Shown one piece after another: positions 1-17,853 of a DNA stretch of 64,000 nt; position 1 is the stretch's first letter, and every line of letters starts with the position of its first letter. This DNA is from Nitrososphaerota archaeon (lineage in GTDB: Archaea > Thermoproteota > Nitrososphaeria_A > Caldarchaeales > Caldarchaeaceae), in the NCBI GenBank assembly GCA_041641305.1, contig JBEPYN010000002.1:96001-160000 (forward strand), read 5' to 3'. Both the position numbers and the translations under genes were made by a program. The notes beneath the pieces were generated by a model. It was not told where the DNA came from and made no database searches. It saw only the letters and a list, made by a program, of their open reading frames with translations.

Positions 1-496
1 TACGGCCCAGCTTTTCACGGCCTAGCAAGACGCGCGCGAGGACCCTCGACACGTTTGTGTCCACCGCTATAAGCCTCTTGCTGTAAACGTGCACCAGCAC
101 TGCTGTCGATATGTAGTCGCCCACTCCGGGCAGATGGGCTAGCGTGCTTTCGCCCACTTCCCCCCTGCACAGCGCGCTGGCTATGCGCAGCAGCTCCGCA
201 GCCCTAAACCTGTAGAAGCCTAGAGGTTTTAGGACAGCCTCCAGCTCCTCTGGACCCGCTTTCTCAAGCAAGCACGGGTTAGGCCACCTTCTCATTATTT
301 CGGTGTATGCGCCCGCCGCCTGCTCCGCCCTCGTCTGCTGGAGGAGCTTCTCTGCCACTATTATCTCATACAGCCCTGAAGCCTCGCGCCAAGGGAAGCT
401 TCGGCCGTTCTTCTGATACCACGTCATCACTGCGTTCGATAGTCTGATGAACCTGCGGCGAAGCTCTGTTACGGCTGCCTTTTTCAACTTGTTCAT
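1..496 (-). CDS. HhH-GPD DNA glycosylase, MutY/MIG (T:G mismatch) family; 3' end runs off the window
   Basis: Manual translation from ATG at 496: MNKLKK...WYQKNGRSFPWR..YEIIVAEKLLQQT...LKPLGFY..RA...LPGVGDYISTAV...AVDTNVSRV. Shows the HhH motif and catalytic Asp (VDTN). Starts 4 nt after the MTase stop. Absent from the ORF track because it has no stop in the window. Confidence 0.9.
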   Translation of the reverse strand, partial: MNKLKKAAVTELRRRFIRLSNAVMTWYQKNGRSFPWREASGLYEIIVAEKLLQQTRAEQAAGAYTEIMRRWPNPCLLEKAGPEELEAVLKPLGFYRFRAAELLRIASALCRGEVGESTLAHLPGVGDYISTAVLVHVYSKRLIAVDTNVSRVLARVLLGREKLGR

Positions 497-500
497 AAAC

Positions 501-1547: not shown

Positions 1548-1631
1548 AACCTTTTTCTTGTAATCTCAGGTATAAAAGAATATCATGAACGACGCGTTGT
1601 CTGTCGTGTCTGCGCTTATTCCCTTATATGC

Positions 1632-1895
1632 ATGGCGCCTTCTGAGGAAGGAGATGTGTTTCTGAGGCGTGTTCGTCTGACAAGCGATGTCCACAGGCTG
1701 GTGGGAAGATACGAGGCGTGCTCCGCCAACTGGCAGGTCTACGTCTTGGTGAAGGAGGACTCTGTTTTGGAGCATCCGGAGCACAGGGCGCTCACTATTC
1801 CGCCCGGCGACTACATATTGTCACGTGTAAGTGAGTTGGATAGGGAGCGGTTTATCAACAACTCGGAGAGGTACACGCGGGCTGTTTCTGATTGA
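1632..1895 (+). CDS. Small conserved hypothetical protein (GDV...HxEH..LPPGxY..RxxE...V-x-D type, usually paired with DUF6745-like genes in phages/proviruses)
   Basis: EGDVFLRRV...VLEHPEHRALTIPPGDYILSRVSE...RAVSD; stop overlaps the next start. Confidence 0.65.
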   Translation: MAPSEEGDVFLRRVRLTSDVHRLVGRYEACSANWQVYVLVKEDSVLEHPEHRALTIPPGDYILSRVSELDRERFINNSERYTRAVSD

Positions 1896-2776
1896 GCGTA
1901 GTTAAGCTTACCACTCGTCCCTGGTATGTTAGGCTGGCACCGGTTTATGTCTGGGCCTCAGCCTCTCTAGCTGTCGCGTTTTCCCTATACATCCTTCTGC
2001 CTCTACCCCTGGTGTTGTTGTTCAGCCCTATATGGGTTGCCGGCAGCGTGGCGGTAGGGTATGTGTTTACACGTCATCTACGGGAGCGGTTGTGTAAGTG
2101 GCTCTATCCCGCAGACCATCATGACTTCTCAACCATAAGGCCCAAGAGGCTTATTCTCGAGGATGGGCGGCTCATGGGCTTTACATGTTACAGGGTTGTA
2201 CGATGCGGTTGCTGCAAGAAGCGGTACAGGTTTATCCCGGTGGGGGAGGACCATTTGACCCGTCTGCTGAGAGAGTTTTTCTGGAGAAAAGGGAGGCGTT
2301 CTGACGACCTTTTCCGGTCCGATAAGGCGTTGCTTGCAGGCGAGCTGAAAGGCTATGGGATAAGGCTTGAGACCGAATACACGGCTTTTTTCCGCAGGTT
2401 CTACTCGCTGAAGTACGGCGGCTCCCATAAGGTGCTTACGTTTTACAGGCCTCCGAAGGAGCTGGAGAAGATGACGGGTATAAGGAGAGCCGTGTTACAG
2501 GTGCTGGATAAAGCCAGCGGAGGTGACGAGAACGGGGTAATCTACCTCCTAGCTGTCAAAATCAAGATAGACGACAGCCACTACACTATGTCGACACACC
2601 TCCTAAGAATCATGAAGAACGGCCATGTCTGGCTGAACCAGACTCCTCACATGCTCCCGCCAAGGCTGGACGACCACCTCGCGTGGATTATGGGGCTTAA
2701 CCCGGGTGAAAGGATGGAGGCTGACCGTGGCGAGGCTGTGTGGCGGCCTCCGAGAAGGATACGCGGCCAGGGCTAA
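1892..2776 (+). CDS. Hypothetical membrane protein (2 N-terminal TM segments, C-terminal LAWIMGL motif), probably mobile-element derived
   Basis: 294-aa ORF coupled to the upstream gene; hydrophobic N-terminus, CGCC motif, C-terminal PPRLDDHLAWIMGL. Confidence 0.6.
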   Translation: MSVVKLTTRPWYVRLAPVYVWASASLAVAFSLYILLPLPLVLLFSPIWVAGSVAVGYVFTRHLRERLCKWLYPADHHDFSTIRPKRLILEDGRLMGFTCYRVVRCGCCKKRYRFIPVGEDHLTRLLREFFWRKGRRSDDLFRSDKALLAGELKGYGIRLETEYTAFFRRFYSLKYGGSHKVLTFYRPPKELEKMTGIRRAVLQVLDKASGGDENGVIYLLAVKIKIDDSHYTMSTHLLRIMKNGHVWLNQTPHMLPPRLDDHLAWIMGLNPGERMEADRGEAVWRPPRRIRGQG

Positions 2777-2786
2777 TACCCCTAGC

Positions 2787-2801
2787 AGTTGCACAGCAAC
2801 T
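2787..2801. promoter_or_regulatory. Palindrome AGTTGC-N3-GCAACT, putative operator or terminator
   Basis: Perfect 6-bp inverted repeat between the 2776 stop and the 2851 ATG; one half-site recurs upstream of the paralogous copy near 10108. Confidence 0.35.
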
Positions 2802-2850
2802 CTCGCACTTTCGCGCCACTCTCTCAACTTATCAGAGACCCTGTGCTGAC

Positions 2851-3075
2851 ATGGTTATGGCTACGTATAGGGAGAGGCTTGAGCAGGAGCTTGAAGGCTG
2901 GAAAAAGTTTAGGGAAGCATTACTAGCCGATGAGAGGGCCGCCTTCGACGACATGGTTAGTTGCTCGCTTAAGTATGCTGGTGGCTCAGAGGCTTACAGG
3001 GAGAGGAGAACCTTCGACCTGCTAGTCATGTCGTCACGGATATCGCATGAGGAGGGGATTGAGGAAGTTGGATGA
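2851..3075 (+). CDS. Small helical protein resembling the archaeal PolB2-associated small protein; possibly frameshifted near the 3' end
   Basis: YRERLEQELEGWKKFREALLADERAAFDDMV...FDLLVMS; second degenerate copy at 10160-10357. Confidence 0.55.
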   Translation: MVMATYRERLEQELEGWKKFREALLADERAAFDDMVSCSLKYAGGSEAYRERRTFDLLVMSSRISHEEGIEEVG

Positions 3076-3168
3076 AGGGTTGAGAACGAGGATGCGGCTC
3101 GACAGCCGGATTGACGAAAGTTTGTTGAGCAGGAACTAAAGAACGAGTTAATGAGCAGGACAGATGAA

Positions 3169-4086
3169 CTATGTTATTGCTGCGGATAGCGTTTCTTTTA
3201 GTTCTTCTAGGTTCTGGTATTTTTTGTTGGGTATGTGTTTTAGTGCTTCCGCTACTCGCATCCTCTTTGTTGGTTTGTGGTCGAATAGTTTCCATCCCTG
3301 CTTAGCTATTATTTCGTCCTTGGTTGCTGGGAATGTGGTGTCCTCTGCTAGGACTTCCACGAGAGACTCCAGACCAATCTTCCCAGTCACAGGCGGCATA
3401 GTCCCAGTCATCCTGTATGCCTTGAGCCTGGCGGCGTCCACATACATCTTGAGCCCGTGGAACGACAGCATAACCCTCTTGGAGGGGGCTTTCTCAGCCT
3501 TTGAATTTATTTCTATAAGCTCTTGGTCGTCGAACTGGTATATGTTATTTCTTCCCCTGCCGAAGAGCCTTGTGTAGGTGAGTTCGGGGTCATAGTACCT
3601 AGGCTCCACCCTCGACAGGTCTGCTACATGTATTATCCCCATGTCCCGCATCTCCCTGTAGCAGGAATCATCGACAAGGCCCCTAACCTCAACACCAACC
3701 CTAACACCCCTCGAATCGACTGAGGAGAAGAACCTTGTGACCCTTTCCGCATCGAGCCTAACGCTTCGGGGAACTTCTAGGATGAGTAAAGGGGCGTTTA
3801 GTATACGGCATATCCCAACCATTTTCTCAAATGCTTTGTAGGCCTCCTCAACGGGCCTAAGACCATGCACATGGGTGACAACCCTGCTACACTTAACTGT
3901 GAATATGAAGTTCTCCGGAGCCCTCTTTCTCCAATTGTGGCAGAGGCTGGCGGGAACATCCCTGTAGAATGTCGTATTCACCTCCACAAAGTCGAAAGCC
4001 CTAGAGTACTCCCTAAGCCTATCCCACGCAGGTATGTTGAAGTACATCCAGCCACCGGTTCCTATCAGGACCTCGCCAGCCATCAA
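3169..4086 (-). CDS. DUF72 (TIM-barrel, endonuclease IV-like) protein with C-terminal DUF2795-like helical domain
   Basis: IGTGGWMY, FDFVEVNTTFY, FTVKCSRVVTH, YTRLFG; C-terminal FPATKDEII...ALKHIPNKKYQNLEEL. Confidence 0.85.
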   Translation of the reverse strand: MMAGEVLIGTGGWMYFNIPAWDRLREYSRAFDFVEVNTTFYRDVPASLCHNWRKRAPENFIFTVKCSRVVTHVHGLRPVEEAYKAFEKMVGICRILNAPLLILEVPRSVRLDAERVTRFFSSVDSRGVRVGVEVRGLVDDSCYREMRDMGIIHVADLSRVEPRYYDPELTYTRLFGRGRNNIYQFDDQELIEINSKAEKAPSKRVMLSFHGLKMYVDAARLKAYRMTGTMPPVTGKIGLESLVEVLAEDTTFPATKDEIIAKQGWKLFDHKPTKRMRVAEALKHIPNKKYQNLEELKETLSAAIT

Positions 4087-4127
4087 AGAGGATTCTTAAA
4101 TCCCCGCTCATAACCATTGACCATGGT

Positions 4128-5294
4128 TTGTCAACCATACTACTTGGTACTTCTGGGTGGAGCTATGATGAGTGGGTTGGACCTATATACCGTAGCAGGG
4201 ATGAGCCAAGGCTTAGAAGGTACAGCATGTTCTTCGAGACAGCAGAGATAGACTCCACCTTCTACTCATACCCAAGAAAAGAGGTTATCACGTCTATGAT
4301 TAGGAATGTTTCCAGCGGTTTCATCTTCACGGCCAAGGCCCCACAGGAGGTTACACACAAGAGGGCCTTGGATGTCAAGGCCGAGGCACATGAGGCGATG
4401 GACAGGTTCCTAGACCTTATGAAGCCCATGAGAGACTCGGGGATGCTTGGATGCATCCTCCTACAGCTACCTCCAAGCATGCGTCTCAACTTGGACAGGC
4501 TGGAAAGCTTCCTCCAAGAGATAGACATGGAATTCAGGTATGCCGTCGAGTTCAGACATCCAAGCTGGATAAGGGATGAAGTTTTCCGAACCTTGAGCAA
4601 GTATGATGTAGCCTATACTGTGGTCGATGAGTCGCTTCTACCCCCTGTTGTTGAGGTTACGGCTGATTTCGCATACGTCAGGTGGCATGGGAGAGGCTCA
4701 GACCCATGGTACAACTACCTATACAGCGACAGCGAGCTCACGCCATGGATACCCAGAATAAGGAAACTGTCGGAAAAAGCCAAGACGGTATACGGTTATT
4801 TCAACAACCACTTCCACGGATACGCGGTATACAACTGCATCAGAGTGATGGAGATGCTGGGAATAGCCGAAGAAAAACACACAAAACTCAAAACACAGAT
4901 AGAAAACTACTTCACACTAGCAGGAATATCCCCTGAAATGAACAGGGAACCGGACGAGGTTGAACACCTCCTAACAACCCTCTCAGACCAAAAAAGAATA
5001 ACAAGAGCACATCAAATAAACGACCAAGACGTGAAGATAACTAGGTTAGATGATGATGTGGTAGAGGCCATTGTCAAGGAATACCCCGTACAAATAGACA
5101 TACAGGGAAAAACTATTAGACACAACTGCCCAGACTGGCACAAAACATCAGAAGAAAGAAAACTATGCAAACACATAAACAAACTCCTCCTCACGATACC
5201 AAAAGAAAAAACAAAAACAATACTACAAAACATCACACAAACACCACACAAATGGAACCTAGAAAATCCACAACAGAACCAAACGGAACGGTAA
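4128..5294 (+). CDS. DUF72 protein with C-terminal SWIM-like zinc finger
   Basis: GTSGWSY, EIDSTFY, LLQLPPS, AVEFRHPSW, YVRWHGR, YFNNH; C-terminal HNCPDW...LCKH. Confidence 0.9.
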   Translation: MSTILLGTSGWSYDEWVGPIYRSRDEPRLRRYSMFFETAEIDSTFYSYPRKEVITSMIRNVSSGFIFTAKAPQEVTHKRALDVKAEAHEAMDRFLDLMKPMRDSGMLGCILLQLPPSMRLNLDRLESFLQEIDMEFRYAVEFRHPSWIRDEVFRTLSKYDVAYTVVDESLLPPVVEVTADFAYVRWHGRGSDPWYNYLYSDSELTPWIPRIRKLSEKAKTVYGYFNNHFHGYAVYNCIRVMEMLGIAEEKHTKLKTQIENYFTLAGISPEMNREPDEVEHLLTTLSDQKRITRAHQINDQDVKITRLDDDVVEAIVKEYPVQIDIQGKTIRHNCPDWHKTSEERKLCKHINKLLLTIPKEKTKTILQNITQTPHKWNLENPQQNQTER

Positions 5295-5374
5295 AAAAGC
5301 TAAAGTTATCGGAATTAAGCTAAAAAGTAGCCCGACCAAAAAGGCTAAAGTCGGCCTTTAAAAATACAAAGGTA

Positions 5375-7098
5375 ATGTGGCGTCCTCTCCATCTGGGAGT
5401 GGTTGTGTTATTTATGCTGAGCTTTTTCCCTCCCACAACTGCTCAACAAATTGATGAAAGGGGGTTTTCTACGTTAGAGTCATTATTTTCAGTAGCTCGG
5501 ATTGGACATCGGTTACCCTGCTCGGTGAAGAAAAGCTTGTGAATGTTAGACACAGACTTATTGAGGGTGATGCCCCCGTCGACGTAGCTTGGGAGGGCAA
5601 GTGGTTTGGTGTGAGTAGATGTTGCTACCCGGAGAAGGTTATAAACGCTACGGTTGAATTCCAGCTCCTAATAACCAACCTAAACCCTGATGGTGTTATC
5701 AGGATGCAGATGCAGAAAGGAGACGTAGGCACTACCATAATCGCAATATATGACAGAGAGGGGAGGACGATTAAGCAGATAACTCATAGCGGGATTGTCC
5801 CAGGCTCTGGAGGGAGAAATCAGCTGAACTTTACAATAGACTCTGCGAGCGTAGCTTCCTCAGGCATGGTTACTATGCTTGGAAAGAGTGGCTACGATAA
5901 AATGGTTTGGGCCGCTTATTACCCATGGTATTTCAAAGAAAGTTGGAGGGATGCTAAGATGGCGGATAGGCCTCTGATAGGTGAGTATGCATCTGATGAT
6001 GAGAATGTGATCAGGTTGCATATACGCATGGCCAAGGCAGCTGGTATAGATGGTTTCGCGGTCTCTTGATGGGGTCCTAACACCTTCACCGACAAAAATC
6101 TGATAAAAATCCTCAAGATCGCGGCTGAGGAGGGCTTCCATGTTGCGGCGTATCTAGAGTCGCTGGGAGGTCGGGGAGAACCAAGACCATTAGCCGAGCT
6201 TGAGAGCATGTTGGAGTATCTGCTCACATTTTACGGCGGCTATTCAGCATACTACAAGCTCCATGGAAAGCCTCTGGTGTTTGTTTGGGCGGCATGGTCC
6301 CATGAACTGGAAGAATGGGGTACAATATTTGAAAACCTCAAAGAAAAAGGAATAAGAGCTATTTACATCGCAACCACTCTAGACACAAAGTATCTTTCGT
6401 CCTTTGATGGTTTACAAAATTATGGCGGCGACGAATTGGATAGGATTACGCAGGTGTATGGTAAAGTAGGGCCTATTGTTAAAACTTATCACATCTTATA
6501 CGGTGGTGTGGAGAAGATATGGGTACCGTCGGTCTGGCCAGGTTATGATGAGCGTCTCCTACCTGACCGTATGGGGCTTTTCTTTGATAGGGAAGAGGGA
6601 CAATATTATCTAGGGTTCTATTCTGCAGCTAGAGCTAGCTATCCAGACTGGATATGGATAACTAGCTTCAACGAGTGGTGGGAGAATACACACATAGAGC
6701 CGAGTCACAAGTATGGCTACAAGTATCTCTTCCTAACAGAATACATAGTAGCCAACTTTAAAAACAAACCCATCAAGCCCGATAAACTACTAGGTATAGT
6801 TATCGATTTAGAAAGCCCATTGAGGACTATAACTAAGTTAGCTGTTTCAACCATTACCGTTACCCAGCAACTGGAGACAACAAGATTCATACATAGTGTA
6901 GAAACTAGGACAGTGGAGGTTTTCAGAACCGTAACCACGGTCTCCACCCTTCTGACGGAAAAAAGAACAGTAGAGATAGCCGATATCATATTGGTGACCG
7001 CACCACTGCTGCTTGTCGCCACGCTGTCTACTGTCTACGCAATTAGAACTAGGAGAAAACATGCCTCTCTACACCGGAGAGAAACAAGGATCAAATAA
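5375..7098 (+). pseudogene. Membrane-anchored GH99/GH71-like glycoside hydrolase, disrupted by a frameshift (G5 run 5460-5464) and a nonsense codon (6067-6069)
   Basis: Signal peptide from ATG 5375; AYYPWY, PLIGEYASDD, AKAAGIDGFAVS*WGP (WW to *W), KPLVFVW, SVWPGYD, WITSFNEWWENTHIEP; Thr-rich stalk, TM helix and basic tail. ORFs 5539-6069 and 6208-7098 are in the same frame. Confidence 0.8.
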
Positions 7099-7432
7099 AC
7101 ACCAAGCAACCACCATACTCCTCCCCTAACTGGAAACGGAGGAATATATCACTCACAGTATTGGATTTTAGCTCTTAAGGGGAAAGATTTTATGATTCGA
7201 TAAATGAAGCAATGTAACAGTTGTTTTCCTCATTTTCCTGGGATGAGTGGAGATCCGACAAAATTTACACCCATAATAATAACAAAGAAAACGTCATAGA
7301 TACCTATGAAGATAGCCCTAATCAACAACCTGAGACTAAAGATCGTGGGGAGGGGGGAGTAATGCATTGTTGACGGCGCCAGGCACACAATAGCCAAAAA
7401 CTTATTAAGCCTCTTATAAAAGTATCAAAAAA

Positions 7433-8683
7433 ATGCAATCCTACAGTCAGTACATTGAGATGGGTGGTGCTCTTAGACTTGAGGGGGTCTTCCTTGAAAG
7501 TATCGTAGCGGCTTACTTATTAACAAAGGGTGAGGAGATAGTCCCAAGTCCCGAGACTAGGGGGATCCAACATGATGTATTAGTGAAGCGAGTTGATGGA
7601 TTCATATTTTACGAGTGCACGGGGCTTTCGGAAATTTCCTCCCAGAAAATCCATAGATTCAGCGACGACGTGAGAGAGTTAAATAAAAGGCTACAAGAGA
7701 GCGAAAAGAAGGGTCTAACAGCAGCGTATTTTGTTGCTGCAGTCCATGAAAATGCTTGGACATCAGAGGCTAAAGATGCATTTCAACGCGTTAAGACACG
7801 GTTACGTGAGAAGTTACGAATAGATGTAAGACTCTTACAGGGTGACGAACTATTACTGGAATTATTGCGTTCAGGAGTTTTGGGGATTAGGTTAGTTAAA
7901 GATAAAGTGTATTGGGCAGGACCAGAAGACCTTGCAATAAGGTATAATGCTCAGAGCAACAGTTTTCAATATGGTCGTTGGAACGAGCACTATGTATCGA
8001 AATTCAACATGCTACACTTCTCATTGCTTCCATCATTTTACTGGGAAAGCTACTATCGCCCGCTTTTCGAAGAAGCTGTAAAGGATAAATTGGAATTACC
8101 ATTATCGGTTTTCACTTACCCTGACCAAGAAGGACTTACATGGCGTAATATAAGAGACGCGGTTGAATGCTTTGCGTCTTATCTTAGCAGACTAAATCGA
8201 ACGTATGTTTGGGAAAAAGGAGAAGACTTCATTCTTGAACTTCATACGAGTAAGAGAGGTTACGATTCTTATATCCTGTACTTGTTTACATCAGGTGAGC
8301 AGAAGAGTCAATCTCCATACGAAGCTAGATATGTTTCCTTAACTCTATTATCATCCCTTAAAGGAAAGGCAGAAGACCTAATAAGCAAGTTTAAAGAGGA
8401 TGGTAAAATACCGAAAGAGGAAAAGGTCAGCGTTATAGTGGTTTCTACCACACAATACTGGTCTCCTCGGGCATGGGGTGCTGTGAAAAAGATCCCTGAA
8501 ACATATAGTGAGGAGGTGGGTTATTCTGAGCGGATTCCCGGAAATGAGTTATTAACACGGCTTTTTAACGCAGGCATTTTGGGGTTTAGGTTTAAGGAGA
8601 AGAACCAAGTGGCAATCGTAGGAGATGGAATCCCTGCTGTTAGAAAGACTGTGGAAGGATTGAAGGTTGCATCTAACGGATAA
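7433..8683 (+). CDS. Putative Mrr-like PD-(D/E)xK nuclease-fold protein with internal duplication
   Basis: LESIVAAYLLTKG...GIQHDVLV...FIFYECT at the N-terminus; repeated segments LQGDELLLELLRSGVLGIRL and IPGNELLTRLFNAGILGFRF. Confidence 0.6.
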   Translation: MQSYSQYIEMGGALRLEGVFLESIVAAYLLTKGEEIVPSPETRGIQHDVLVKRVDGFIFYECTGLSEISSQKIHRFSDDVRELNKRLQESEKKGLTAAYFVAAVHENAWTSEAKDAFQRVKTRLREKLRIDVRLLQGDELLLELLRSGVLGIRLVKDKVYWAGPEDLAIRYNAQSNSFQYGRWNEHYVSKFNMLHFSLLPSFYWESYYRPLFEEAVKDKLELPLSVFTYPDQEGLTWRNIRDAVECFASYLSRLNRTYVWEKGEDFILELHTSKRGYDSYILYLFTSGEQKSQSPYEARYVSLTLLSSLKGKAEDLISKFKEDGKIPKEEKVSVIVVSTTQYWSPRAWGAVKKIPETYSEEVGYSERIPGNELLTRLFNAGILGFRFKEKNQVAIVGDGIPAVRKTVEGLKVASNG

Positions 8684-8748
8684 TCCTGACTGCGACAATT
8701 ATAGGCGGTAACACATATATGCTTGTGGCGGATATTAAACGTCATAGT

Positions 8749-9546
8749 ATGACCATAGTAATAGGTTTGAGATGGCAGTATAGGGACTCTGACGCGATAT
8801 TAATCACCTCCGACTCCAAGGTCACTACTTCTCTTGGCATAACTTATGAGATGAGGAAGGTTTACCCGATTTTGTTTAATGATGAAAGGCCTGTGGCTGT
8901 TGTTGGGGTTGCTGGCGATGCTCCTTTGGCTAAATACGGAGTGGAAGTAGTTGAGGATGTCTTACTAGGCTATGCTGAGGAGGGACTACCGCTGGAATAT
9001 GGCAAGTTCAGGTTAGCAGTCAGGGAGGTTGAGCGCCGGCTTATTCGTCACTTCAGCGAGCTCAGAACTCACGGTATTGACCCAAGCTTCCAGATGCTGC
9101 TAGGCGCCGTGGACCTGAAAGGGAAAGGTTCTCTCTATCTGTTCGACAGCAGGGGACTCTCCGAACCCGTACACGATAACCCGGGCTACGGTATCATAGG
9201 TTCGGGGATGATTACTGGAGGGATTCTGCTGCTTAGGATGATAGGTTTTGAACCTGGGCTAGAGCTAGGACTGCTCTCCGCATTCATAATAGACTCGGTT
9301 AGCGAGGTTGATTCATCGGTTGGCCGGTTCATAGGAGACAGCTACCTAATGAGGTTGGAGACTGAGAACAACGAGAGAAAAATAGTGCTGGGGCCGTTAA
9401 AGGAAGAGGCGCTTATAAAATACAAGGAACAAATACGTGCGAGGAGAGACATAATAGGGAGGATATGGCGGTTATGCGACGAGCTAGGAGAAGAAAAAAT
9501 AACAGAGGTTATCAACAATGTTGAAAAACATAAACATTCATACTAG
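8749..9546 (+). CDS. Divergent proteasome beta-subunit-like Ntn hydrolase without propeptide
   Basis: M-TIVIG (Thr1), ITSDSKVT (Asp17 equivalent), RKVYPI (Lys33 equivalent), GVAGD, MLLGAVD, LYLFDSRG, IIGSG, EVDSSVG; start reassigned from 8719 to ATG 8749. Confidence 0.8.
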   Translation: MTIVIGLRWQYRDSDAILITSDSKVTTSLGITYEMRKVYPILFNDERPVAVVGVAGDAPLAKYGVEVVEDVLLGYAEEGLPLEYGKFRLAVREVERRLIRHFSELRTHGIDPSFQMLLGAVDLKGKGSLYLFDSRGLSEPVHDNPGYGIIGSGMITGGILLLRMIGFEPGLELGLLSAFIIDSVSEVDSSVGRFIGDSYLMRLETENNERKIVLGPLKEEALIKYKEQIRARRDIIGRIWRLCDELGEEKITEVINNVEKHKHSY

Positions 9547-9560
9547 GTGAAAAGAATAGC

Positions 9561-9932
9561 ATGCAGGAAAGCACTCCATGGATAACTAACTACATCGAAT
9601 ATCTGGTAAATAGATACTTTGGGCCGTGTGGCTTGGCAGATGATGCTTTAAGGGAGCTCCGAAATCTTCCAAAGGGCCTCTCTCGACAGCTTGGTAATGA
9701 CGAGAATTTCTGGCGAGGGTATTTTTCTAACCCGACGAGACTGAACTTGATTGAAGGGGCCGTTAGATATGTAGGCGAAAGTGCTCGCCGACGCTCAGAA
9801 GAGCATGGCAGAAATCCGTGCTATTACCTCAACCTCGCGTTAGATAAGGAGGAGATGACAACATGGTTGGCGGGCTATCTACAAGTCTTCCTGCCGTATG
9901 AATTCTCCGAGAATAGAAATTCGTCGGAATAG
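9561..9932 (+). CDS. Hypothetical helical protein, probably co-transcribed with the Ntn hydrolase
   Basis: 123-aa ORF 14 nt downstream of the previous stop, preceded by an AGGTGA Shine-Dalgarno. Confidence 0.65.
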   Translation: MQESTPWITNYIEYLVNRYFGPCGLADDALRELRNLPKGLSRQLGNDENFWRGYFSNPTRLNLIEGAVRYVGESARRRSEEHGRNPCYYLNLALDKEEMTTWLAGYLQVFLPYEFSENRNSSE

Positions 9933-10159
9933 ACGTCTAACGCGGATTAAACATAAACTACTTTATCCATTATCGTGACATTACCGGTTAAAGGACGCGT
10001 ATACCCCGAATCACAATAAAGCATATTGTCTTCATCACGCTAAATACAAAATCTTCTTACCCATGACTTGTATAATCTTGGAATGATAGAGCTGAGGTCC
10101 CTGGTCAAGTTGCATCCTCGCACAGTATTTACAGCTTGTGAGGGAGTTGAAAACATCTC

Positions 10160-10357
10160 ATGCGTTGGCTTTATACAGGAGAGAGGCTGGGGCAGGACTT
10201 TGAAGACTGGAAAAGATTCAGGGAGGCTTTACTGGCTGAGTTAAGGTATGCTTTCGATAGCATGGTCAACCACCCGCTGAGGTACGCTAGAAAGAGGCTC
10301 AGGACCCTAGAGGACGGCCGGAAGGTGAGGATAACTCTATACAGTGTTATAGAATGA
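10160..10357 (+). pseudogene. Degenerate second copy of the 2851-3075 small protein
   Basis: GERLGQDFEDWKRFREALLAELRYAFDSMV aligns with RERLEQELEGWKKFREALLADERAAFDDMV; similarity is lost after about 45 codons. Confidence 0.6.
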
Positions 10358-10402
10358 AGGGCTGTAGCCAGCCTGCTTATTTCGGTGATACCGTCTGCAC
10401 CT

Positions 10403-11452
10403 TTATGAGGTTTTTATTAGCTCTAGTTTGGCTAGGATATTGTTTATTTTTTGCATGAGATTGGATGCTTCTAATACGTCTTCGACAGTCAGGTATGTGA
10501 TGTTTCTTCTGAAATCCTCTGACAGATCCTCTATCTCCTTCTTAAACTTATCCAACCCATCTGTGTTAGATACTATGATTATCTTCTGCACTGATTGATC
10601 CTTCTTCGCCTTCATGAGGTTCAGTATGGCTGAATCTATAGAGCCTGACTTATGAACTTCGAAGACATATTTTATAACTCCTAGGTTGCCTATCTTAGCC
10701 CGCCAGACGGCATCCACCCTAGCTCCCGTTGACACTGTCCTCTCGCTTTCGACTTCGAAACCAAGACCTGCACCGAGCTCAACAAGCTTCTCCACTATCT
10801 CGTCATGATCAAAGTCATAAACTTCTGATACACGGACCTCACCCTGCTCAGCTCCAAGCTGTATATAGTATAGGAATACGTCAACATCTAGCAAGTCTTC
10901 TCCTAAGCCCTCAGCCTTTAACTCTCTTTCTATTTGTTTAGCGATATTTAAAAACCTCTCGTACTCCTCTCCAGATATCCTATACTTGTTAACAGGTATC
11001 TCGTTACCAAGCCCTAAAACTCTGAGAGCACGTCTGCTCATCTCGTTCCATATGGCATACTCCGTCGGCCGAGCAAAACACATTATCTCTGTTGTTTGGG
11101 CAGGTCCCAAGCCCTTAACCCTCTTAAAGAACCTGTCGAACCTATCTCTAAGGCTGTCAGAACCCCATAAAAGGTCCTTAAACATCTCCCTCAAATTTCC
11201 TACGTCATTGTTCTCTAGGACCCTGTCAACAACGTATTGTTTATTAATCCAAGAGGCATTTGCCCAAAGCTCCATTACAACACGCGAGAGAACAGATACA
11301 TCGAGTTCATTTAACTTGTCAGCCGAAAATATCTCGGCATAGCGTTTACTCCTCTCCTCCCTTTCATACAACCATCTCCTCCCTTCCCCATCGATAAACT
11401 TCCTATATCCGGACAACTTTTTCTTTACTTCCTGAACAATCTCCATTTTCAC
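10403..11452 (-). CDS. Putative restriction endonuclease: N-terminal HhH-like domain plus C-terminal PD-(D/E)xK domain
   Basis: VKGLGPAQTTEIMCFARPTEYAIWN (HhH-like); HDEIVEKLVELG..LGF...RVDAVW...VFEVHKSG (catalytic D...E-x-H). Confidence 0.7.
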   Translation of the reverse strand: MKMEIVQEVKKKLSGYRKFIDGEGRRWLYEREERSKRYAEIFSADKLNELDVSVLSRVVMELWANASWINKQYVVDRVLENNDVGNLREMFKDLLWGSDSLRDRFDRFFKRVKGLGPAQTTEIMCFARPTEYAIWNEMSRRALRVLGLGNEIPVNKYRISGEEYERFLNIAKQIERELKAEGLGEDLLDVDVFLYYIQLGAEQGEVRVSEVYDFDHDEIVEKLVELGAGLGFEVESERTVSTGARVDAVWRAKIGNLGVIKYVFEVHKSGSIDSAILNLMKAKKDQSVQKIIIVSNTDGLDKFKKEIEDLSEDFRRNITYLTVEDVLEASNLMQKINNILAKLELIKTS

Positions 11453-11641
11453 TTCTCTCTGTAGCTAGACACTATATAAGTCGCTCCATTGACTTAGCAC
11501 TTCAGCTATCTCGTCCTTTTCCCATTGTAGGTCTAAAAGGGATTCGGAAATAACATCAAAAGCCATACAATGTGGAGCCCATGGTACGATGGGGTCAGCA
11601 GTCGAGGATCCGCAACATATAAAGCCTACTATAAATTGGTA

Positions 11642-11658
11642 GATAGTGTCCGGATAAG
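11642..11658 (+). repeat. IS6 terminal inverted repeat GATAGTGTCCGGATAAG
   Basis: Matches the reverse complement of 12180-12196 at 16/17 positions. Confidence 0.85.
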
Positions 11659-11687
11659 CATCTTTACCCACCTCCGTTCCTGATGGT

Positions 11688-11918
11688 TTAGTAGTACAGC
11701 GTGAAGAGGTTCAGGAACAAGTTCAGGTTCTTTATTCTCTGCTCGTAATCCCTTGCGCTCAATTTGTTGTGGAACACCATCGTCCTCTCCTTGAGGTACC
11801 TGAAGAACCTCTCTCCCCTATTCCTAATTCCGAACCTCTGGTGCTCGTACTCTAGCCCAAGCCTCTGCAACGCCCACGGATACCAAGGGCCCCTATCGAC
11901 TAAGGCTTGTTCAGACAC
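11688..11918 (-). pseudogene. IS6-family DDE transposase C-terminal fragment
   Basis: VDRGPWY..AL..LGL...RNR.ERFF..LKER. Confidence 0.85.
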
Positions 11919-12179
11919 ATCTTGAGGGCCTTCTTGAGGAAGTTTAGGGCGTTCAGGCAGCTCCTGCCTTACGAAGCCTCCGTGTACTGTGATTTGTTTA
12001 TTGGCTCTAGAGCTATGCTGAGCACCTTGGAGACCTTCCTGCAGCTTCCGCGGAACATGTAATCCAGGACAGCTAAGACCTTCACTCCACGGCTTTTTTG
12101 TTGCGCTTGAAGCAGCCCGAGATCAGGACCACTAGGTCCACACAGATTATCATCAAAGACCGGCCTTTAAATGTAGTCC

Positions 12180-12196
12180 CTTATCCGGACACTACC
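12180..12196 (-). repeat. IS6 terminal inverted repeat GGTAGTGTCCGGATAAG (minus strand)
   Basis: CTTATCCGGACACTACC on the + strand; GG terminus typical of IS6. Confidence 0.85.
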
Positions 12197-12284
12197 GGAG
12201 GATAGATATGATCCGCGGGTTTTCGAGGAGTTAAAGGAGTGAATATTTATTAATAGAACAGCAGTAAAGAGACGAGATAGGCAC

Positions 12285-12827
12285 ATGGTTGTTAAGGTGT
12301 ATCTTCCGACGCCGCTTCGCCAGTATGCCGATGGCCGGGACATGGTTGAGCTGGACGGCTCAACCGTTGGAGAGGTTCTAAACAAGCTAGTAAGCCGCTA
12401 TAACGCGCTTCAGAAGCATCTATTCAACGAAAACGGGGCAATAAGGAGCTTTGTAAACGTTTTCGTCAACAACGAGGACATCAGGTTTCTCGAAGGCGTC
12501 AACACCAAGATAAAGGACGGAGACGTCGTCTACATCATCCCCTCTATAGCTGGTGGACTGAGCATCGCGGCTCCGGCTGCCGTGGCGAGGAAACTGGGCA
12601 GAACGGTGAAGCAGCACGGCAGAATAACCGTTCCCGCGAAGCTTCTCAAAAAAGCCAAGAAAAACGAGGTAACAGTCATCATAGACGACGTCAAATACCT
12701 CTTCGAACCCGACAGATATAACCGCATCTACCTACCCCCTGCTCTCCGGGAAAAGATACTGCACATGTCATCCTTCGAGTTCACCTTGTCCGACGGCGAG
12801 CTCATCCTCAGGTTCAGAAGGTTTTAA
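12285..12827 (+). CDS. Ubiquitin-like (MoaD/ThiS/SAMP/CysO) domain with internal GG fused to a double AbrB/MraZ-like domain
   Basis: VKVYLPTPLR...TVGEVL...VNVFVNNEDIRFLEG..T.IKDGDVVYIIPSIAGG, then VKQHGRITVPAKLLK and PDRYNRIYLPPALRE. Confidence 0.85.
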   Translation: MVVKVYLPTPLRQYADGRDMVELDGSTVGEVLNKLVSRYNALQKHLFNENGAIRSFVNVFVNNEDIRFLEGVNTKIKDGDVVYIIPSIAGGLSIAAPAAVARKLGRTVKQHGRITVPAKLLKKAKKNEVTVIIDDVKYLFEPDRYNRIYLPPALREKILHMSSFEFTLSDGELILRFRRF

Positions 12828-12851
12828 GAGCAGGTAGACATAGGACTTTCC

Positions 12852-13256
12852 ATGGTTAAGTTTGTCGTAACGGTTGAGACGGAGGATGATGTAGAGGTTT
12901 CTCTCGAGGCCTCTTCTAAGGAGGAAGCTTTGGCCAACCTTGACGAGCTTCTCGCGTTGACACGCGCAGTCGCGGAGAGGCTGAAAACCAAGCCGCAGCA
13001 CAAGGCCCCGAAAAGACGTGGAAAATCCGAGGCGGTTAAAGCACTAGAGATAATCGAACAGAAACTCATACCCTCCTCCTTCTTCAGCACCGCGAGAACA
13101 ACAGCTGAAGTGAGACAAAAAATCATCGAGCAATCTGGTCTACCGTTTCAGAGCCGCAAAGTTAGCCAAGCACTGGGTATACTCTATGACAAAGGAACCT
13201 TAACACGTGTCGGGCAAAAAGGCAACTACAGATGGATACTCCCGAAATCGCCGTGA
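12852..13256 (+). CDS. Putative winged-helix DNA-binding protein
   Basis: FFSTARTTAEVRQKI...SRKVSQALGILYDKGTLTRVGQKGNYRW; 24 nt after the Ubl-AbrB gene. Confidence 0.65.
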   Translation: MVKFVVTVETEDDVEVSLEASSKEEALANLDELLALTRAVAERLKTKPQHKAPKRRGKSEAVKALEIIEQKLIPSSFFSTARTTAEVRQKIIEQSGLPFQSRKVSQALGILYDKGTLTRVGQKGNYRWILPKSP

Positions 13257-13300
13257 AGTGGATGAACCCATAAATAAAGACCAAGTAGTAAACTTCCCGG

Positions 13301-14173
13301 ATGAACGTGGCCGAGACGGTTAGGGTCTATTTTTCGCTGACGAAGCCCAATGTCTGGTGGCTTCTGGCTTTCACGGGGGCGGCGGGAATTTTCGCCGCCT
13401 CCAACGGGTTACCCGACCCCTATCTCTTCACGGTCGCTATTCTTTCAATAACTTTTGGTGTTGCTGGGACGGAGGCTGCTTCAAACTATCTTGAGATGTC
13501 GCTTGACTCTGTGATGAGGAGGACATCGAAGCGTGTTCTTCCGCGGGGGTTGATTAACCCGCCTTGGAAAGCTCTAGTGTTTGGTCTCGTTTTGATGACG
13601 ATTTCTCTCATTTTCGCTATTTTCATCAACCCTGTGACATTTTTCTTCATGGCTTCGGGGATGTTTGACTACTTGGTTGTCTATGTCATGTGGAGTAAGC
13701 GGCGGACGCCGTTGAACATTATTCTCGGAAGCTATGCGGGCGGAGCTCCTCTGATGGCGGGATACACCGCTGTGAGCTATTGGCCGACGCTGGAAGCCTT
13801 CATCCTCGCCGCCTTGATAGTTCTCTGGATTCCGCCGCATATCTGGAGCCTTGCTCTCATATACAAGGAGGACTATGCGAGAGCTCATGTGCCCATGCTC
13901 CCCGTCGTAACCTCAGAGGCCACAGCAATCCGCTGCATCTCCTCAACAACAATAATCTCAGTCCTCTTCACATTCCTCCTCTATTTCCTCTATCCAGAGA
14001 AGTATGGACTCATATATCTTGTCGCAGCCGTGGTCAGCGGGTTGATGATTGTTCTGCCAGCAACCGCGCTGATAGTTAATCCAAACCGTAAAACAGCTTA
14101 CCTACTGTTCAAAACCACGAGCCCACAGCTGTTCATCATTATGCTCGCCGTGGTACTGGACACTTTTATCTAA
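13301..14173 (+). CDS. ctaB: Protoheme IX farnesyltransferase (heme o synthase)
   Basis: LTKP, N..LE...D..MRRTSKRVLPRG, Y...SKRRTPLNI, LWIPPHIWSLA..YKEDYARAHVPMLP. Confidence 0.93.
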   Translation: MNVAETVRVYFSLTKPNVWWLLAFTGAAGIFAASNGLPDPYLFTVAILSITFGVAGTEAASNYLEMSLDSVMRRTSKRVLPRGLINPPWKALVFGLVLMTISLIFAIFINPVTFFFMASGMFDYLVVYVMWSKRRTPLNIILGSYAGGAPLMAGYTAVSYWPTLEAFILAALIVLWIPPHIWSLALIYKEDYARAHVPMLPVVTSEATAIRCISSTTIISVLFTFLLYFLYPEKYGLIYLVAAVVSGLMIVLPATALIVNPNRKTAYLLFKTTSPQLFIIMLAVVLDTFI

Positions 14174-15495
14174 CCAGGTTTAATCCACTGGCCCTCGGCA
14201 GATCCGCTGGGCTCTCCGTCGACTGCCACTATTTTTCCGCGTAGTATTGTGTAGCGGTGTTTGGCGAGGATTTCTCTGCCGTCGAAGGGTGTGAAACGGT
14301 GTTTGCTGTGCAGTTTGTCTGCCTGTATCTTCGAGGGTGTCCGTGGGTCGAAGATGGCGAAGTCGGCGTCCGAGCCTATCAACAGCCCCCCTTTCCGCGG
14401 ATACAGTCCAAAAGTTTTCGCCGGGTTTGTTGAGAGAACTTCAGCCACTTTCTCGAGTGGGATATATCCACGTAGGGCCGTGTCAACCATCAGGGGCCCA
14501 AGCAGCTCTACGCCAAACATGCCTGCGGGGGCCTCGAAAACGTTTCTGCCTTTTTCCTCTAAGGTATGTGGAGCATGGTCAGAGCCGATGTTGGTTATCA
14601 CACCCAGCCGCAGGCCCTGTAGAAGCTTCTCCCTGTCTTCTGGGAAACGTATTGGCGGGTTTACCTTCATCAGGTTACCGAAGCGCTTGTAGTCGCCGCT
14701 GTCGAGCAATAGATACTGTGGGCATGTTTCGACAAACACGGATGGGGCCCTATTCAGGCGGAGATAGTCAACAGCCTCGCCGCTGCTGAGATGCACAATC
14801 AAGGCACGGCCCCCTGTCTTAGCTGCGTAGTAGTTGATTTTGATGACGGAGTCGACCTCACATATCGCAGGCCTCGCATATAGGTGCGACAGTGGAGAAA
14901 CAGGTTCTCGCCGTGCTTTTTGTTCATAGTGGTGGACGAGGTAACGGTTTTCGCAGTGGAAAGCTATTGTGAAGCCTTTTTCACGGGAGAGTGTGAGGGC
15001 CTCGATGATTGTTGGGTCGCTGGGCTGCTCGATGTCTCCTGTGGTGGGTCCGAGAAACGCCTTGAAGCCAACCGCCCCTGCTTCAAGCATCTCCTCCAAG
15101 TTGTTTAGGCTCTGGTCGGTCAACACACCGTATAGCCCATAATCCACCCACGACTTGCCGCGCACACGCTCCGCTTTCATTCTAAGTGTTGACGCGTCGG
15201 CTACGGGTGGAACCGTGTTGGGCATCTCGAGAACAGTCGTCACACCTCCCGCCGCTGCTGCGGCAGAGCCTGTCGAGAAATCCTCTTTCCACTCGTAGCC
15301 AGGCTCCCTGAAGTGGACATGCTCGTCAACAAAGCCTGGAAACACATACATCCCCGACGCGTCAACAACATCCACGCCACGTATGTCAAACCTCTCACCA
15401 ACCGCCGCAATCTCTCCATCCTCGACATAAATGCTGGCCCGGACAACGCCCTGTGGTGAAACTATGTATCCATCCTTGATTACGAGCTCTGACAC
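14170..15495 (-). CDS. Cyclic amidohydrolase (allantoinase/dihydroorotase family); allantoinase favoured by the adjacent xanthine dehydrogenase genes
   Basis: PGFVDEHVHFREPG, AAAAGGVTTVLEMPNT, HCEN, ETCPQYL, KVNPPIR, GSDHAPH. Confidence 0.85.
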   Translation of the reverse strand: MSELVIKDGYIVSPQGVVRASIYVEDGEIAAVGERFDIRGVDVVDASGMYVFPGFVDEHVHFREPGYEWKEDFSTGSAAAAAGGVTTVLEMPNTVPPVADASTLRMKAERVRGKSWVDYGLYGVLTDQSLNNLEEMLEAGAVGFKAFLGPTTGDIEQPSDPTIIEALTLSREKGFTIAFHCENRYLVHHYEQKARREPVSPLSHLYARPAICEVDSVIKINYYAAKTGGRALIVHLSSGEAVDYLRLNRAPSVFVETCPQYLLLDSGDYKRFGNLMKVNPPIRFPEDREKLLQGLRLGVITNIGSDHAPHTLEEKGRNVFEAPAGMFGVELLGPLMVDTALRGYIPLEKVAEVLSTNPAKTFGLYPRKGGLLIGSDADFAIFDPRTPSKIQADKLHSKHRFTPFDGREILAKHRYTILRGKIVAVDGEPSGSAEGQWIKPG

Positions 15496-15555
15496 ATGTT
15501 TTCACCGGCTGTGAAGCATTTTAACCTTAAAAAGGCGTCATAGTTCACGTGGGTT

Positions 15556-17847
15556 GTGAGTGTTGACGAAGAAGCTTACAGCGTTATCCAGGAGTGGCTT
15601 TCGCGTGACAGGTTCATAGTCGTGAAAAAAGACGTCGTCAGACACGAGTCTGTCGCAGGTGTCAGGGGGATGCTTCGCTATGTCGAGGACTATGTCGACG
15701 GCCGCTGTCTCCACGCACGCATCGTGAGAAGCATGGTTCCACATGGGTTGCTCAAGTCAATCAAGTTAAATGACTCGAGTGGACACTTGATTACGGCCCG
15801 TGATGTCCCGGGTGAGAATCAGGTTGGTTACACGGTGGCTGACCAGCCTGTTCTCGCCGAGAAGAAGGTAAGGTTCTACGGTGAGTCTGTCGCGCTCGTG
15901 GTTTCGGACAACGGCTACTCTGCCGAGGATTTGCTTGAGAAAGTTGAGGTAGAGATTGAGCCTCTGCCAGCTGTTTACGATGTTTTCGAGGCTATGGAGA
16001 ACAGGGTTTTGATACATGAGGAGAGGGGCTCCAACATAGCTGTGACGGCGCATGTCAGGAAAGGAGATGTCTCGGTGGGCGAACGCGAGTCTGATGAAGT
16101 TGTGGAGAAGACCTATGTCCTCTCGCCGCAGGACCACGCCTACATGGAGACAGAGGCTGCTCTGGCCATCCCCAGCCCCGACGGCGTAACCGTCATAAGC
16201 CAAGCACAGTACCCACATCTAGCCCAGAAAACCGTCGCAAGAGTTCTCGGCATCCCGTACAGCAAAGTCGCCATCATCCAGCCCGCTATAGGAGGTGCCT
16301 TCGGTGGAAAGGATGACATGGGCCCGATTGTCTCGGCACAGGCCGCCCTCGCATGCTGGAAACTCGGTAAACCAGTCTACCTACAATACAGCCGTGAAGA
16401 AAGTTTCACAAGCCACTGCAAACGCGACCCCGCGGTAATCAAATGCAGAACAGGCGCCTCCCGTGATGGCTTGCTCAAGTTCCTGGATGCAGAGGTTATT
16501 TTTGACAGCGGAGCCTATGCAAACAGGGGCCCCTACACGCTCTGGCGAGCATGTGTCCATGTCGCGGGGCCCTACCGGATACCGCATGTAAACGTTGTCG
16601 GCAAACTTGTATACACAAACAAGGTTTACCAGGGAAGCTTCAGAGGGTTCGGCAATCCGCAGGCAGAGTTCGCGGCTGAGCGGCAGATGGATGAGCTGGC
16701 CCGTCGCCTCGGCATAGACCCAGTAGAGTTCAGGCTCAAAAACCTCCTAAGGCCCGGAGACCTTTCCGCCACCTCGCAGCCCATGCCCGAGGACACAGGC
16801 ATCGCGCCGCTTGTCGAAAAAATGAGGAACACTCTACACATCCCCAAGAAGAAGAGAGAAAACGGCTACCGGTATGGATACGGTTTCGCAGTCGCGTGGC
16901 ACGGCATAAGCACAAGCCGCGGCGTACCCGACTGGGGGTCGGCGACACTAACCGTCCTGAGGGATGGGAGCGTGGTTGTCTCAAGCGGCGTAGTGGAGTT
17001 TGGACAAGGGACGCATACAGCGATTAAGCAGGTTGTAGCGGAGGTTTTGGGCATACCGTATGAGTGGGTGAAGCTCGAGGGTGGAACAAGCTACGCCCCA
17101 GACACGGGTGCGACGCACGGCTCCCGTGGACTGACCCTCGGCGGCTCAGCCGCTCTTGTGGCAGCGGGCCGTGTGAGAAAAAGGGTTGTGAAGGTGGCTG
17201 CGGAGATGCTGGAGGCCAACCCCGACGACATCGAGATAGCCGACGGCAAAGTGTTTGTGAAAGGTGTGGAAAACAAGATGCTTGACTGGCGCGACATCGT
17301 CGCCGCATGCTACGCACGGGGAGTAGACCTCACCTCGAGCGGCTACTTCTTCCTCAAGAAGGACAAGTTCGACGAGTCCCGTGGACAGGGCCACGCCTAC
17401 ACCATTTACTCTTTTTCCGCAGTCTTGGTGGAGGTGAGGGTGGACACTGAGACGGGCAAGGTCGAGGTCACGAACGTGTGGCCCGGTGCGGCATGCGGCA
17501 GAATAATCAACCCGGGCATAGCTTTGGGCCAGATACATGGGTCGGTTGTCCAGTCTCTCGGCTACTCGTTGACTGAGCGCATGGTGTTTGAGGAAGGGCG
17601 ACTCCTCACGGCGAGCTTGATGGATTACCTCATCCCCTCGGCTGTCGAGACACCGCGGATACATGAACCCATATACCATGAGGACATCTGCCCACACGGG
17701 CCCCTCGGGGCTAAGGGCTTGGCTGAGCTGGCCCTGATACCCGTCCCCGCAGCCGTGGCCAACGCCATCAAAGACGCCGTCGGAGTAGATGTCGACGAAA
17801 TCCCCGTAGTCCCCGAGAAACTGATCAAGCAGCTACACCAACGGTGA
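15556..17847 (+). CDS. Xanthine dehydrogenase family molybdopterin-binding subunit
   Basis: HAYMETEA, GGAFGGK, SFRGFGNPQ, VEFGQG, GATHGSR, GAKGLAE. Confidence 0.92.
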   Translation: MSVDEEAYSVIQEWLSRDRFIVVKKDVVRHESVAGVRGMLRYVEDYVDGRCLHARIVRSMVPHGLLKSIKLNDSSGHLITARDVPGENQVGYTVADQPVLAEKKVRFYGESVALVVSDNGYSAEDLLEKVEVEIEPLPAVYDVFEAMENRVLIHEERGSNIAVTAHVRKGDVSVGERESDEVVEKTYVLSPQDHAYMETEAALAIPSPDGVTVISQAQYPHLAQKTVARVLGIPYSKVAIIQPAIGGAFGGKDDMGPIVSAQAALACWKLGKPVYLQYSREESFTSHCKRDPAVIKCRTGASRDGLLKFLDAEVIFDSGAYANRGPYTLWRACVHVAGPYRIPHVNVVGKLVYTNKVYQGSFRGFGNPQAEFAAERQMDELARRLGIDPVEFRLKNLLRPGDLSATSQPMPEDTGIAPLVEKMRNTLHIPKKKRENGYRYGYGFAVAWHGISTSRGVPDWGSATLTVLRDGSVVVSSGVVEFGQGTHTAIKQVVAEVLGIPYEWVKLEGGTSYAPDTGATHGSRGLTLGGSAALVAAGRVRKRVVKVAAEMLEANPDDIEIADGKVFVKGVENKMLDWRDIVAACYARGVDLTSSGYFFLKKDKFDESRGQGHAYTIYSFSAVLVEVRVDTETGKVEVTNVWPGAACGRIINPGIALGQIHGSVVQSLGYSLTERMVFEEGRLLTASLMDYLIPSAVETPRIHEPIYHEDICPHGPLGAKGLAELALIPVPAAVANAIKDAVGVDVDEIPVVPEKLIKQLHQR

Positions 17848-17853
17848 GGCAAC

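Follow-up and report, generated by a model that had tools for sequence, protein, structure and literature searches.

By 2021, 22 families of proteasome homologues had been catalogued, with a function for almost none of them. The described groups with which the protein considered here has to be compared are ACC, a small archaeal family (Fuchs et al. 2021) with a proteasome-like core carrying Thr1, Asp17, Lys33 and Gly47, no propeptide and no assigned function; Anbu, a bacterial protein encoded in an operon with ATP-grasp, alpha-E and transglutaminase genes; and connectase, in which the Thr1 chemistry supports ligation (PMC7980362) and whose hallmarks are that helices H1 and H2 are lost and that two helices are inserted between strands S3 and S4 (PMC8665760). 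We analyzed a stretch of 64,000 nucleotides, hereafter the window, from the genome (1.66 Mb, 99% complete) of a hot-spring Nitrososphaerota archaeon in the Caldarchaeaceae (assembly GCA_041641305.1, contig JBEPYN010000002.1, positions 96,001 to 160,000 of the forward strand). Three successive plus-strand open reading frames (ORFs) in the window encode P1, a tandem nuclease-fold protein, P2, a proteasome-family peptidase, and P3, a small protein (coordinates in Table 1). P1 and P2 recur as neighbors in other archaeal genomes, and we see about an even chance that they form a real, horizontally mobile two-gene conflict module of thermophilic TACK (Thaumarchaeota, Aigarchaeota, Crenarchaeota and Korarchaeota) archaea, whose two products, peptidase and nuclease-fold protein, act on each other.

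Homologues of P1 and P2 are adjacent in 9-10 distinct loci and in three gene orders (L and G numbers label the loci and genomes used in our comparisons). P1 precedes P2 in the window, L008, L023/24, L047, where P1 is split in two, and L050/51; P2 precedes P1 in L002, L006, L022 and L025-27; and the two genes converge in L001/L032. These loci come from Caldarchaeales, Bathyarchaeia and other lineages, their P1 proteins are 38-58% identical, and the intergenic gaps measure 0-65 nt. Wherever a P1 homologue with at least 38% identity has usable flanks, a P2 homologue is directly adjacent. All P1-linked sequences fall into one clade of the P2 tree (support 100/99; 8/11 rows), and three subclades of this clade have the three different gene orders, so the adjacency has outlasted at least two rearrangements. 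The P1 and P2 trees conflict at well-supported nodes, with L023 joining the window in the P2 tree and falling outside the window's clade in the P1 tree; for these few taxa, the conflict points to exchange of partners between modules. That the two genes have stayed adjacent through both processes speaks for a functional connection. A complex prediction for P2 (residues 11-275) with P1 scored 0.00, which gives no verdict in either direction.

P2 is, judging from alignment and model together, a catalytically intact, propeptide-less Thr1 peptidase of the proteasome family, with its activity predicted. The family model of P2, with a predicted local distance difference test (pLDDT) score of 89, matches 20S beta subunits in Foldseek with an E value of 5e-11 and a probability of 1.0, and it aligns in VIA-align with the beta subunits of M. 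tuberculosis and T. acidophilum at Z scores of 22-23 and root-mean-square deviations of 2.0-3.1 A over 197-219 residues. Residue 12 of the model superposes on Thr1 of the mature beta subunits. Across 48 P2 homologues, in the numbering of a 275-aa form of the protein, D32, K47 and G66 never vary and at least 90% of the sequences keep T12; together these correspond to Thr1, Asp17, Lys33 and Gly47, that is, the nucleophile, the Asp, the Lys and the oxyanion-hole Gly. The 275-aa form would start from an in-frame upstream ATG at 8719 and be 10 residues longer, but since every sequence in the 48-sequence alignment begins with MT(L/I)V we place the start at 8749. The same uniform MT beginning is the reason for regarding P2 as lacking a propeptide, so the proteasome-beta fold without propeptide proposed in a preliminary description of this DNA, made from the sequence alone, is upheld. 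Two long helices, 229-256 and 258-274, make up the C-terminus in the model.

At the level of sequence the relationship is very distant. The match of P2 to the Pfam proteasome family PF00227 reaches 14 bits (E 0.04), under the cut-off of 22.4, and a P2-family profile found no significant match among PDB sequences. Five canonical proteasome genes are present elsewhere in the same genome, and P2 is therefore an extra, very divergent paralogue. Its homologues come from Caldarchaeales, Bathyarchaeia, Nitrosocaldus, Thermoprotei, Korarchaeia and Aenigmatarchaeota, with WP_103287179.1 (Nitrosocaldus) as a RefSeq member. One P2 homologue nested in the archaeal P1-linked clade (L003, DATKOK010000005.1) is encoded by a contig of 5.8 kb from the bin of a Methylomirabilota bacterium; the contig may be misbinned archaeal DNA or may reflect transfer to bacteria.

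Going by the published family description, we infer that P2 fits the uncharacterized ACC family (Fuchs et al. 2021). It has in common with ACC its archaeal origin, the core with the four catalytic positions, the absent propeptide, the small family size without assigned function and the long C-terminal helices, which in ACC are a predicted coiled coil, and the P2 model lacks large insertions. The difference is one of setting: Fuchs et al. give no gene context, and neither P1, the alternative partners discussed below, nor the defence-island surroundings appear in that paper. Anbu structures (5nyg, 5nyw, 5lox) also match P2 well, at Z 20.5-21.5 over about 220 residues that include the long C-terminal helix, and Anbu likewise has Thr1 immediately after Met, but sequence similarity between P2 and Anbu is undetectable and neither the window nor any of more than 40 related loci has an ATP-grasp, alpha-E or transglutaminase-like gene near P2. 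The structural hallmarks of connectase are absent from the P2 model, in which helices span 68-86 and 94-117 and nothing is inserted between S3 and S4.

P1 consists of two restriction-endonuclease-like domains of the PD-(D/E)xK fold in tandem, at about residues 15-146 and 238-376 of an AlphaFold model with pLDDT 89 and a predicted template modeling score of 0.87. Each domain is followed by a four-stranded beta meander, and the motif G(I/V)LG(F/I)R is common to both. Foldseek gives a probability of 1.0 for AF1548 (1y88) and NucS/EndoMS (5gke, 2vld). In VIA-align, residues 239-369 match the NucS C-domain at Z 8.6 and residues 19-138 the CdiA-CT nuclease toxin at Z 8.3, with EcoT38I, FokI, the N-domains of LlaBIII and Avs4, and the nuclease domains of Card1, Can2 and Cap4 at Z 6.5-7.7. 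Both domains thus match PD-(D/E)xK nucleases at Z 6.4-8.6; these values are middling, and the fold is consistent throughout. The preliminary description had called P1 a tandem Mrr-like nuclease, of which the duplicated restriction-endonuclease-like fold stands and membership of the Mrr family is not supported. Pfam and NCBIfam give no match to Mrr_cat (PF04471) at E values up to 1, so "Mrr-like" is valid at the superfamily level only, and the Mrr-like N-domains of Avs4 (Z 6.9) and LlaBIII (Z 7.2) score no better than other PD-(D/E)xK proteins.

Among 18 full-length P1 relatives, the N-terminal domain has invariant H47, D48, E61, G64 and K72 and a nearly invariant E22, while the C-terminal domain has no invariant acidic or Lys residue. 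Position 63, where the lysine of the usual ExK would stand, is T, M or N in the relatives, and the window reads E61-C-T63; K72 may substitute for this lysine. Taken with the model, the conservation pattern makes P1 a pseudo-dimer with one candidate non-canonical active site (E22/D48/E61/K72) and one degenerate copy. The restriction-endonuclease-like cores of NucS/EndoMS and AF1548 (2vld, 5gke, 1y88) are the best structural matches to both P1 domains, but P1 differs from these proteins in being a tandem of two cores with a single conserved site, in the form of that site (D..E-x-T/M/N..K rather than D..ExK) and in lacking the NucS N-terminal domain and any sequence-level match to them. The most conserved linear motif of P1 lies in the linker between its domains, where S197, P200 and W204 are invariant and Y203 and Y208 nearly so; mean pLDDT over residues 201-230 is low, at 49-62. 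Docking or processing may take place at this linker. The P1 family is very small: among 1.84 billion proteins we found 40 representatives, mostly fragments, and the family comes to 13 clusters at 90% identity. Two apparent multi-domain relatives, P0147 and P0150, were rejected as low-complexity or coiled-coil artefacts.

In a sister clade of the P1-linked sequences, and in some more distant members of the family, the P2-type peptidase is joined to a different protein, c2 (560-700 aa), usually preceded by a third, c8 (360-410 aa), in the order c8, c2, peptidase. The c2-linked loci are L004, L005, L013, L015, L017 (a fragment), L056 (G352:C1) and L057 (G205:C22), the last with two c8 copies and an upstream P-loop nucleoside triphosphatase (NTPase). 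The C-terminus of c2 has the invariant residues E453, D462, E476, E478, K489 and E495, and this E..D..ExE..K pattern suggests a nuclease domain. Profile-profile comparisons of P1 with c2 and of P1 with c8 were negative, Pfam searches with six c2 proteins returned one weak HSDR_N_2 match (E 0.09), and c2 found nothing among PDB sequences; a nuclease domain common to P1 and c2 would be indicated only by their similar D..E..K motif pattern. A conserved ATPase component was considered and rejected, as the P-loop NTPases beside the c8-c2-peptidase genes in L056 and L057 are mutually unrelated. The linkage to c2 and c8 fits the idea of one conserved peptidase with exchangeable nuclease-like partners.

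The genes for P1, P2 and P3 are in an accessory part of the genome. With the start of P2 set at 8749, the gaps between them are 65 nt (P1-P2) and 14 nt (P2-P3), and a Shine-Dalgarno-like AGGTGA precedes P3, so the three closely spaced, co-oriented genes are as first described. The AT-richer stretch noted at that time is also real, with a GC content of 0.39-0.50 over about 4.5-12 kb of the window against 0.55-0.60 in the flanks. The closest complete relative from the same genus (G018) has about 530 bp where the window has about 3120-12850, and the three genes therefore lie in a variable island of about 9.7 kb. The island also holds two DUF72 genes and the pseudogene and insertion-sequence remnant noted in that description, namely a truncated GH99-like ORF and an IS6-family transposase remnant, the latter bracketed by a perfect 15-nt inverted repeat that probably represents the ends of a decayed IS6 element. 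The "another nuclease" of the preliminary description could not be confirmed, as the 349-aa ORF in question gives only the weak OGG-like match listed in Table 1. A repeat search found no direct repeats flanking the island, and Rfam found no RNA families in window positions 1-20000.

Table 1. Features of the window and of the loci compared with it; coordinates refer to the window unless a locus or genome label is given.
Feature	Coordinates	Strand	Remarks
C5 cytosine methylase	501-1547	-	upstream of island
DUF8156-like small gene	2740-3075	+	match 2863-3054; left edge of island
Truncated GH99-like ORF	6208-7098		island member
P1	7433-8683	+	416 aa
Codons of P1 inter-domain linker motif	8021-8056	+	S197, P200, W204, Y203, Y208
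P2	8749-9546	+	265 aa from ATG 8749
AGGTGA, Shine-Dalgarno-like	9545-9550	+	10 nt upstream of P3 ATG; overlaps P2 stop codon; read from sequence
P3	9561-9932	+	123 aa
349-aa ORF	10403-11452	-	weak OGG-like match, E 5e-4; no NCBIfam or PDB match
15-nt inverted repeat	11644-11658 / 12180-12194		probable ends of decayed IS6 element
IS6-family transposase remnant	11688-11918	-	inside island
ThiS-MraZ fusion gene	12248-12827		right edge of island
Methylase and helicase genes (L061)	G000:C2:81772-95844		directly upstream of window
DUF8156-like genes, other loci	L022:2485-2760; L048:4170-4427		just upstream of P2
ThiS-MraZ genes, relatives	G018:C1:674833-675375; L045:7350-7929		window copy 92% identical
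P3 homologue, frameshifted	L025:3666-4003, L026, L027 (-)		called as 65-aa and 51-aa genes
P2 C-terminal remnant	L041/L042:5845-5985		directly upstream of intact P3 homologue
P2 without P1	L049:3272-5780		downstream of terminase genes

Both edges of the island have genes that are found in other loci. The DUF8156-like small gene at the left edge is likewise at the left edge in G018 and also occurs just upstream of P2 in two unrelated loci, and it may be an island-associated regulator or a marker of an integration hot spot. The ThiS-MraZ fusion gene at the right edge is inverted with respect to its relatives' copies, which are elsewhere on the chromosome; this inversion and displacement suggests rearrangement at an island hot spot.

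The surroundings of the island are those of a defence region, as first proposed. Directly upstream of the window are an Eco57I/MmeI-type methylase, a PLD-SNF2 helicase, a 1001-aa DEAD helicase and two coupled genes without assignment (284 and 443 aa), which with the C5 cytosine methylase inside the window make up a DISARM-like defence cluster; the methylases and helicases are about 6-25 kb from P1 and P2. Other copies of the pair adjoin PLD-SNF2 helicases (L022, L051), an MmeI-type enzyme (L025), or DUF499 and resolvase genes (L023), with toxin-antitoxin genes also among the neighbors in this set of loci, and in L050 a UPF0175/DUF3368 pair is near P1 and P2. The P2 family is patchily distributed: it occurs in 13 of the 400 genomes sampled from the phylum and in 2 of the 11 from the genus. 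Some of its members may be carried by viruses or proviruses: in L049 a P2 homologue that has no P1 beside it follows split genes for the terminase large subunit (Terminase_6N / 6C) at a distance of about 160 nt. As had been expected, none of the three proteins has a significant match in PADLOC-DB v2, where the best match overall was that of P1 to PDC-M04B (E 0.03, 12 bits).

P3 has an invariant RYFG.CGL motif and a second invariant Cys, gives no match above cut-off in Pfam, NCBIfam or PADLOC, and has homologues in only 3 clusters among 5.8 billion proteins. It accompanies the pair in only about four loci, among them the window, L001, where it is upstream of P1, and L025-27, where a divergent homologue carries the identical frameshift in three samples and represents either a stable pseudogene or a two-piece form. 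P3 is also found apart from the pair, beside BREX genes in L043/44 and, in L045/46, behind a Cas_APE2256 fragment next to Cas6, in an island that has the ThiS-MraZ gene in common with the window. In L041/L042 a remnant of the P2 C-terminus (47 residues, 60% identical) adjoins a DUF1156 methylase / SNF2 helicase system and an intact P3 homologue; this is a decayed copy of the module. Of the trio first proposed as a unit, then, the P1-P2 pair recurs, but P3 is missing from most loci, frameshifted in one lineage and alone in BREX and Cas islands, and it is best seen as an island-associated small protein, a frequent but optional companion of P2.

Within the two-gene conflict module that we give an even chance, P2 would probably form an Anbu-like oligomer through its C-terminal helices and P1 would have one probably active DNA-cleaving or nicking site (E22/D48/E61/K72), the role of the pair being either antiviral, perhaps by abortive infection, or addiction-like. 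In the version that we prefer, P2 would control the abundance or the activation of P1 by proteolysis, possibly at the conserved flexible linker, and DNA would be cleaved as a result, either upon invasion or once the element has been lost. Conjectural in this proposal are that P1 cleaves DNA, that P2 acts on P1, which of them controls the other and whether there is any antiviral effect, and equally conjectural is the gating of nuclease activity by cleavage or ligation of P1 or P3 that the preliminary description put forward. Close P1 homologues are always with P2, and P2 is often without P1 and elsewhere with c2 and c8; this asymmetry suggests a common core in P2 and, in the nuclease-fold protein, an exchangeable part that depends on P2. 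A wider and more tentative extension, which we consider possible and somewhat doubtful, is that an as yet undescribed archaeal immune or conflict class has ACC-type proteasome homologues as its common core: a Thr1 peptidase would be combined with exchangeable nuclease-fold partners (P1, c2/c8), and proteolysis would switch the nuclease on or off during attack by viruses or plasmids.

Several observations weigh against a two-gene conflict module. Nuclease activity of P1 is not assured, given the missing canonical ExK lysine. Most members of the P2 family occur without P1, including L048 and L049 inside the P1-linked clade and all of the other clades, and two distant P1 homologues (26-31% identity) on short contigs are found without P2 among transporter and metabolic genes; each family being found without the other, either gene can act alone. 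A housekeeping operon, NurA-HerA-Mre11-Rad50, adjoins two of the pair loci, L025-27 and L047. The defence-island setting is only guilt by association, and no PADLOC, Pfam or NCBIfam model backs any role for P1, P2 or P3.

The same asymmetry between the two families is what would be expected of a toxin that needs its neutralizer, and the strongest of the alternatives, though an unlikely one, is that the pair is addiction cargo of mobile elements in the manner of a toxin-antitoxin system: P1 would be a toxic nuclease that P2 neutralizes by continuous proteolysis, so that loss of the element kills or arrests the cell. Mobile-element genes are indeed close by (the IS6 remnant in the window, the resolvase in L023), P2 is next to Prim-Pol, PIN and MazE genes in L048 and to the terminase in L049, and in L047 P1 is split and P2 intact. 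However, the pair in the window has no linked gene for an integrase or for replication, and the distant P1 homologues exist without P2. We know of no precedent for a catalytic protease as an antitoxin, which also counts against this explanation.

The resemblance of P1 to NucS/EndoMS and AF1548, its best structural matches, brings up a role in DNA repair or end processing, in which P1 would be a NucS/EndoMS-like structure-specific nuclease and P2 its turnover protease, both accessory to genome maintenance at high temperature. That the NurA-HerA-Mre11-Rad50 operon abuts the pair in two different arrangements is in keeping with this, but the patchy distribution, the low-GC insertion, the shuffled gene orders and the exchanged partners are all atypical of core repair genes, and we regard a repair role as improbable. 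To the same low degree we credit the view that P1 and P2 are chance neighbors, P2 being an Anbu-like peptidase that works by itself and P1 a nuclease-fold gene with no connection to it, both of which gather in variable islands. Each family does have members without the other, and the neighborhoods of P2 are otherwise highly variable, but chance would have to account for adjacency in 9-10 loci of several lineages, at 38-58% P1 identity, in three orientations and with gaps of 0-65 nt. That P2 instead acts like connectase on P1 or P3, joining or modifying them as a sequence-specific protein ligase or transpeptidase, is very improbable, for although it would use the same Thr1 chemistry as connectase (PMC7980362) and the flexible P1 linker offers a strictly conserved linear motif, the P2 model keeps H1 and H2, lacks the two-helix S3/S4 insertion that defines connectase (PMC8665760) and resembles proteasome beta subunits and Anbu over the whole core.

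The preliminary description knew of no such system among those described. PADLOC and the literature searched contain no description of the P1 family, of its pairing with P2 or of the defence-island setting, and no paper in that literature ties a proteasome homologue to archaeal defence, but the peptidase family itself fits a published one, ACC (Fuchs et al. 2021), and P1 accompanies only a minority of its members. What appears to be new by these searches is the P1 family, the pairing and the setting, and what was already known is the peptidase family, as an uncharacterized one. The archaeal ACC-type family is thereby given a conserved partner gene, an alternative partner specific to other clades and a place in a defence island, and an orphan enzyme family becomes a testable two-protein system. 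Should ACC-type peptidases prove to be the core of an immune class, a proteasome-family enzyme would for the first time have a role in defence, and ACC would have gained its first function. Archaeal immunity is under-sampled, and a module specific to thermophiles would also be of practical interest.

Coupling of a protease to an effector is an established arrangement in defence, as in the CalpL-type Lon-SAVED systems, Craspase and the proteases that activate gasdermins. To our knowledge none of these uses a proteasome-family N-terminal nucleophile peptidase, and, unlike them, P1 and P2 are accompanied by no cyclic-nucleotide sensor, CRISPR component or pore-former of which we are aware. The general logic proposed for P1 and P2 is nevertheless the same, and if the peptidase does control the nuclease, the pair would add a new regulatory principle to those of prokaryotic conflict systems and a route by which proteasome-type chemistry was recruited beyond bulk protein degradation.

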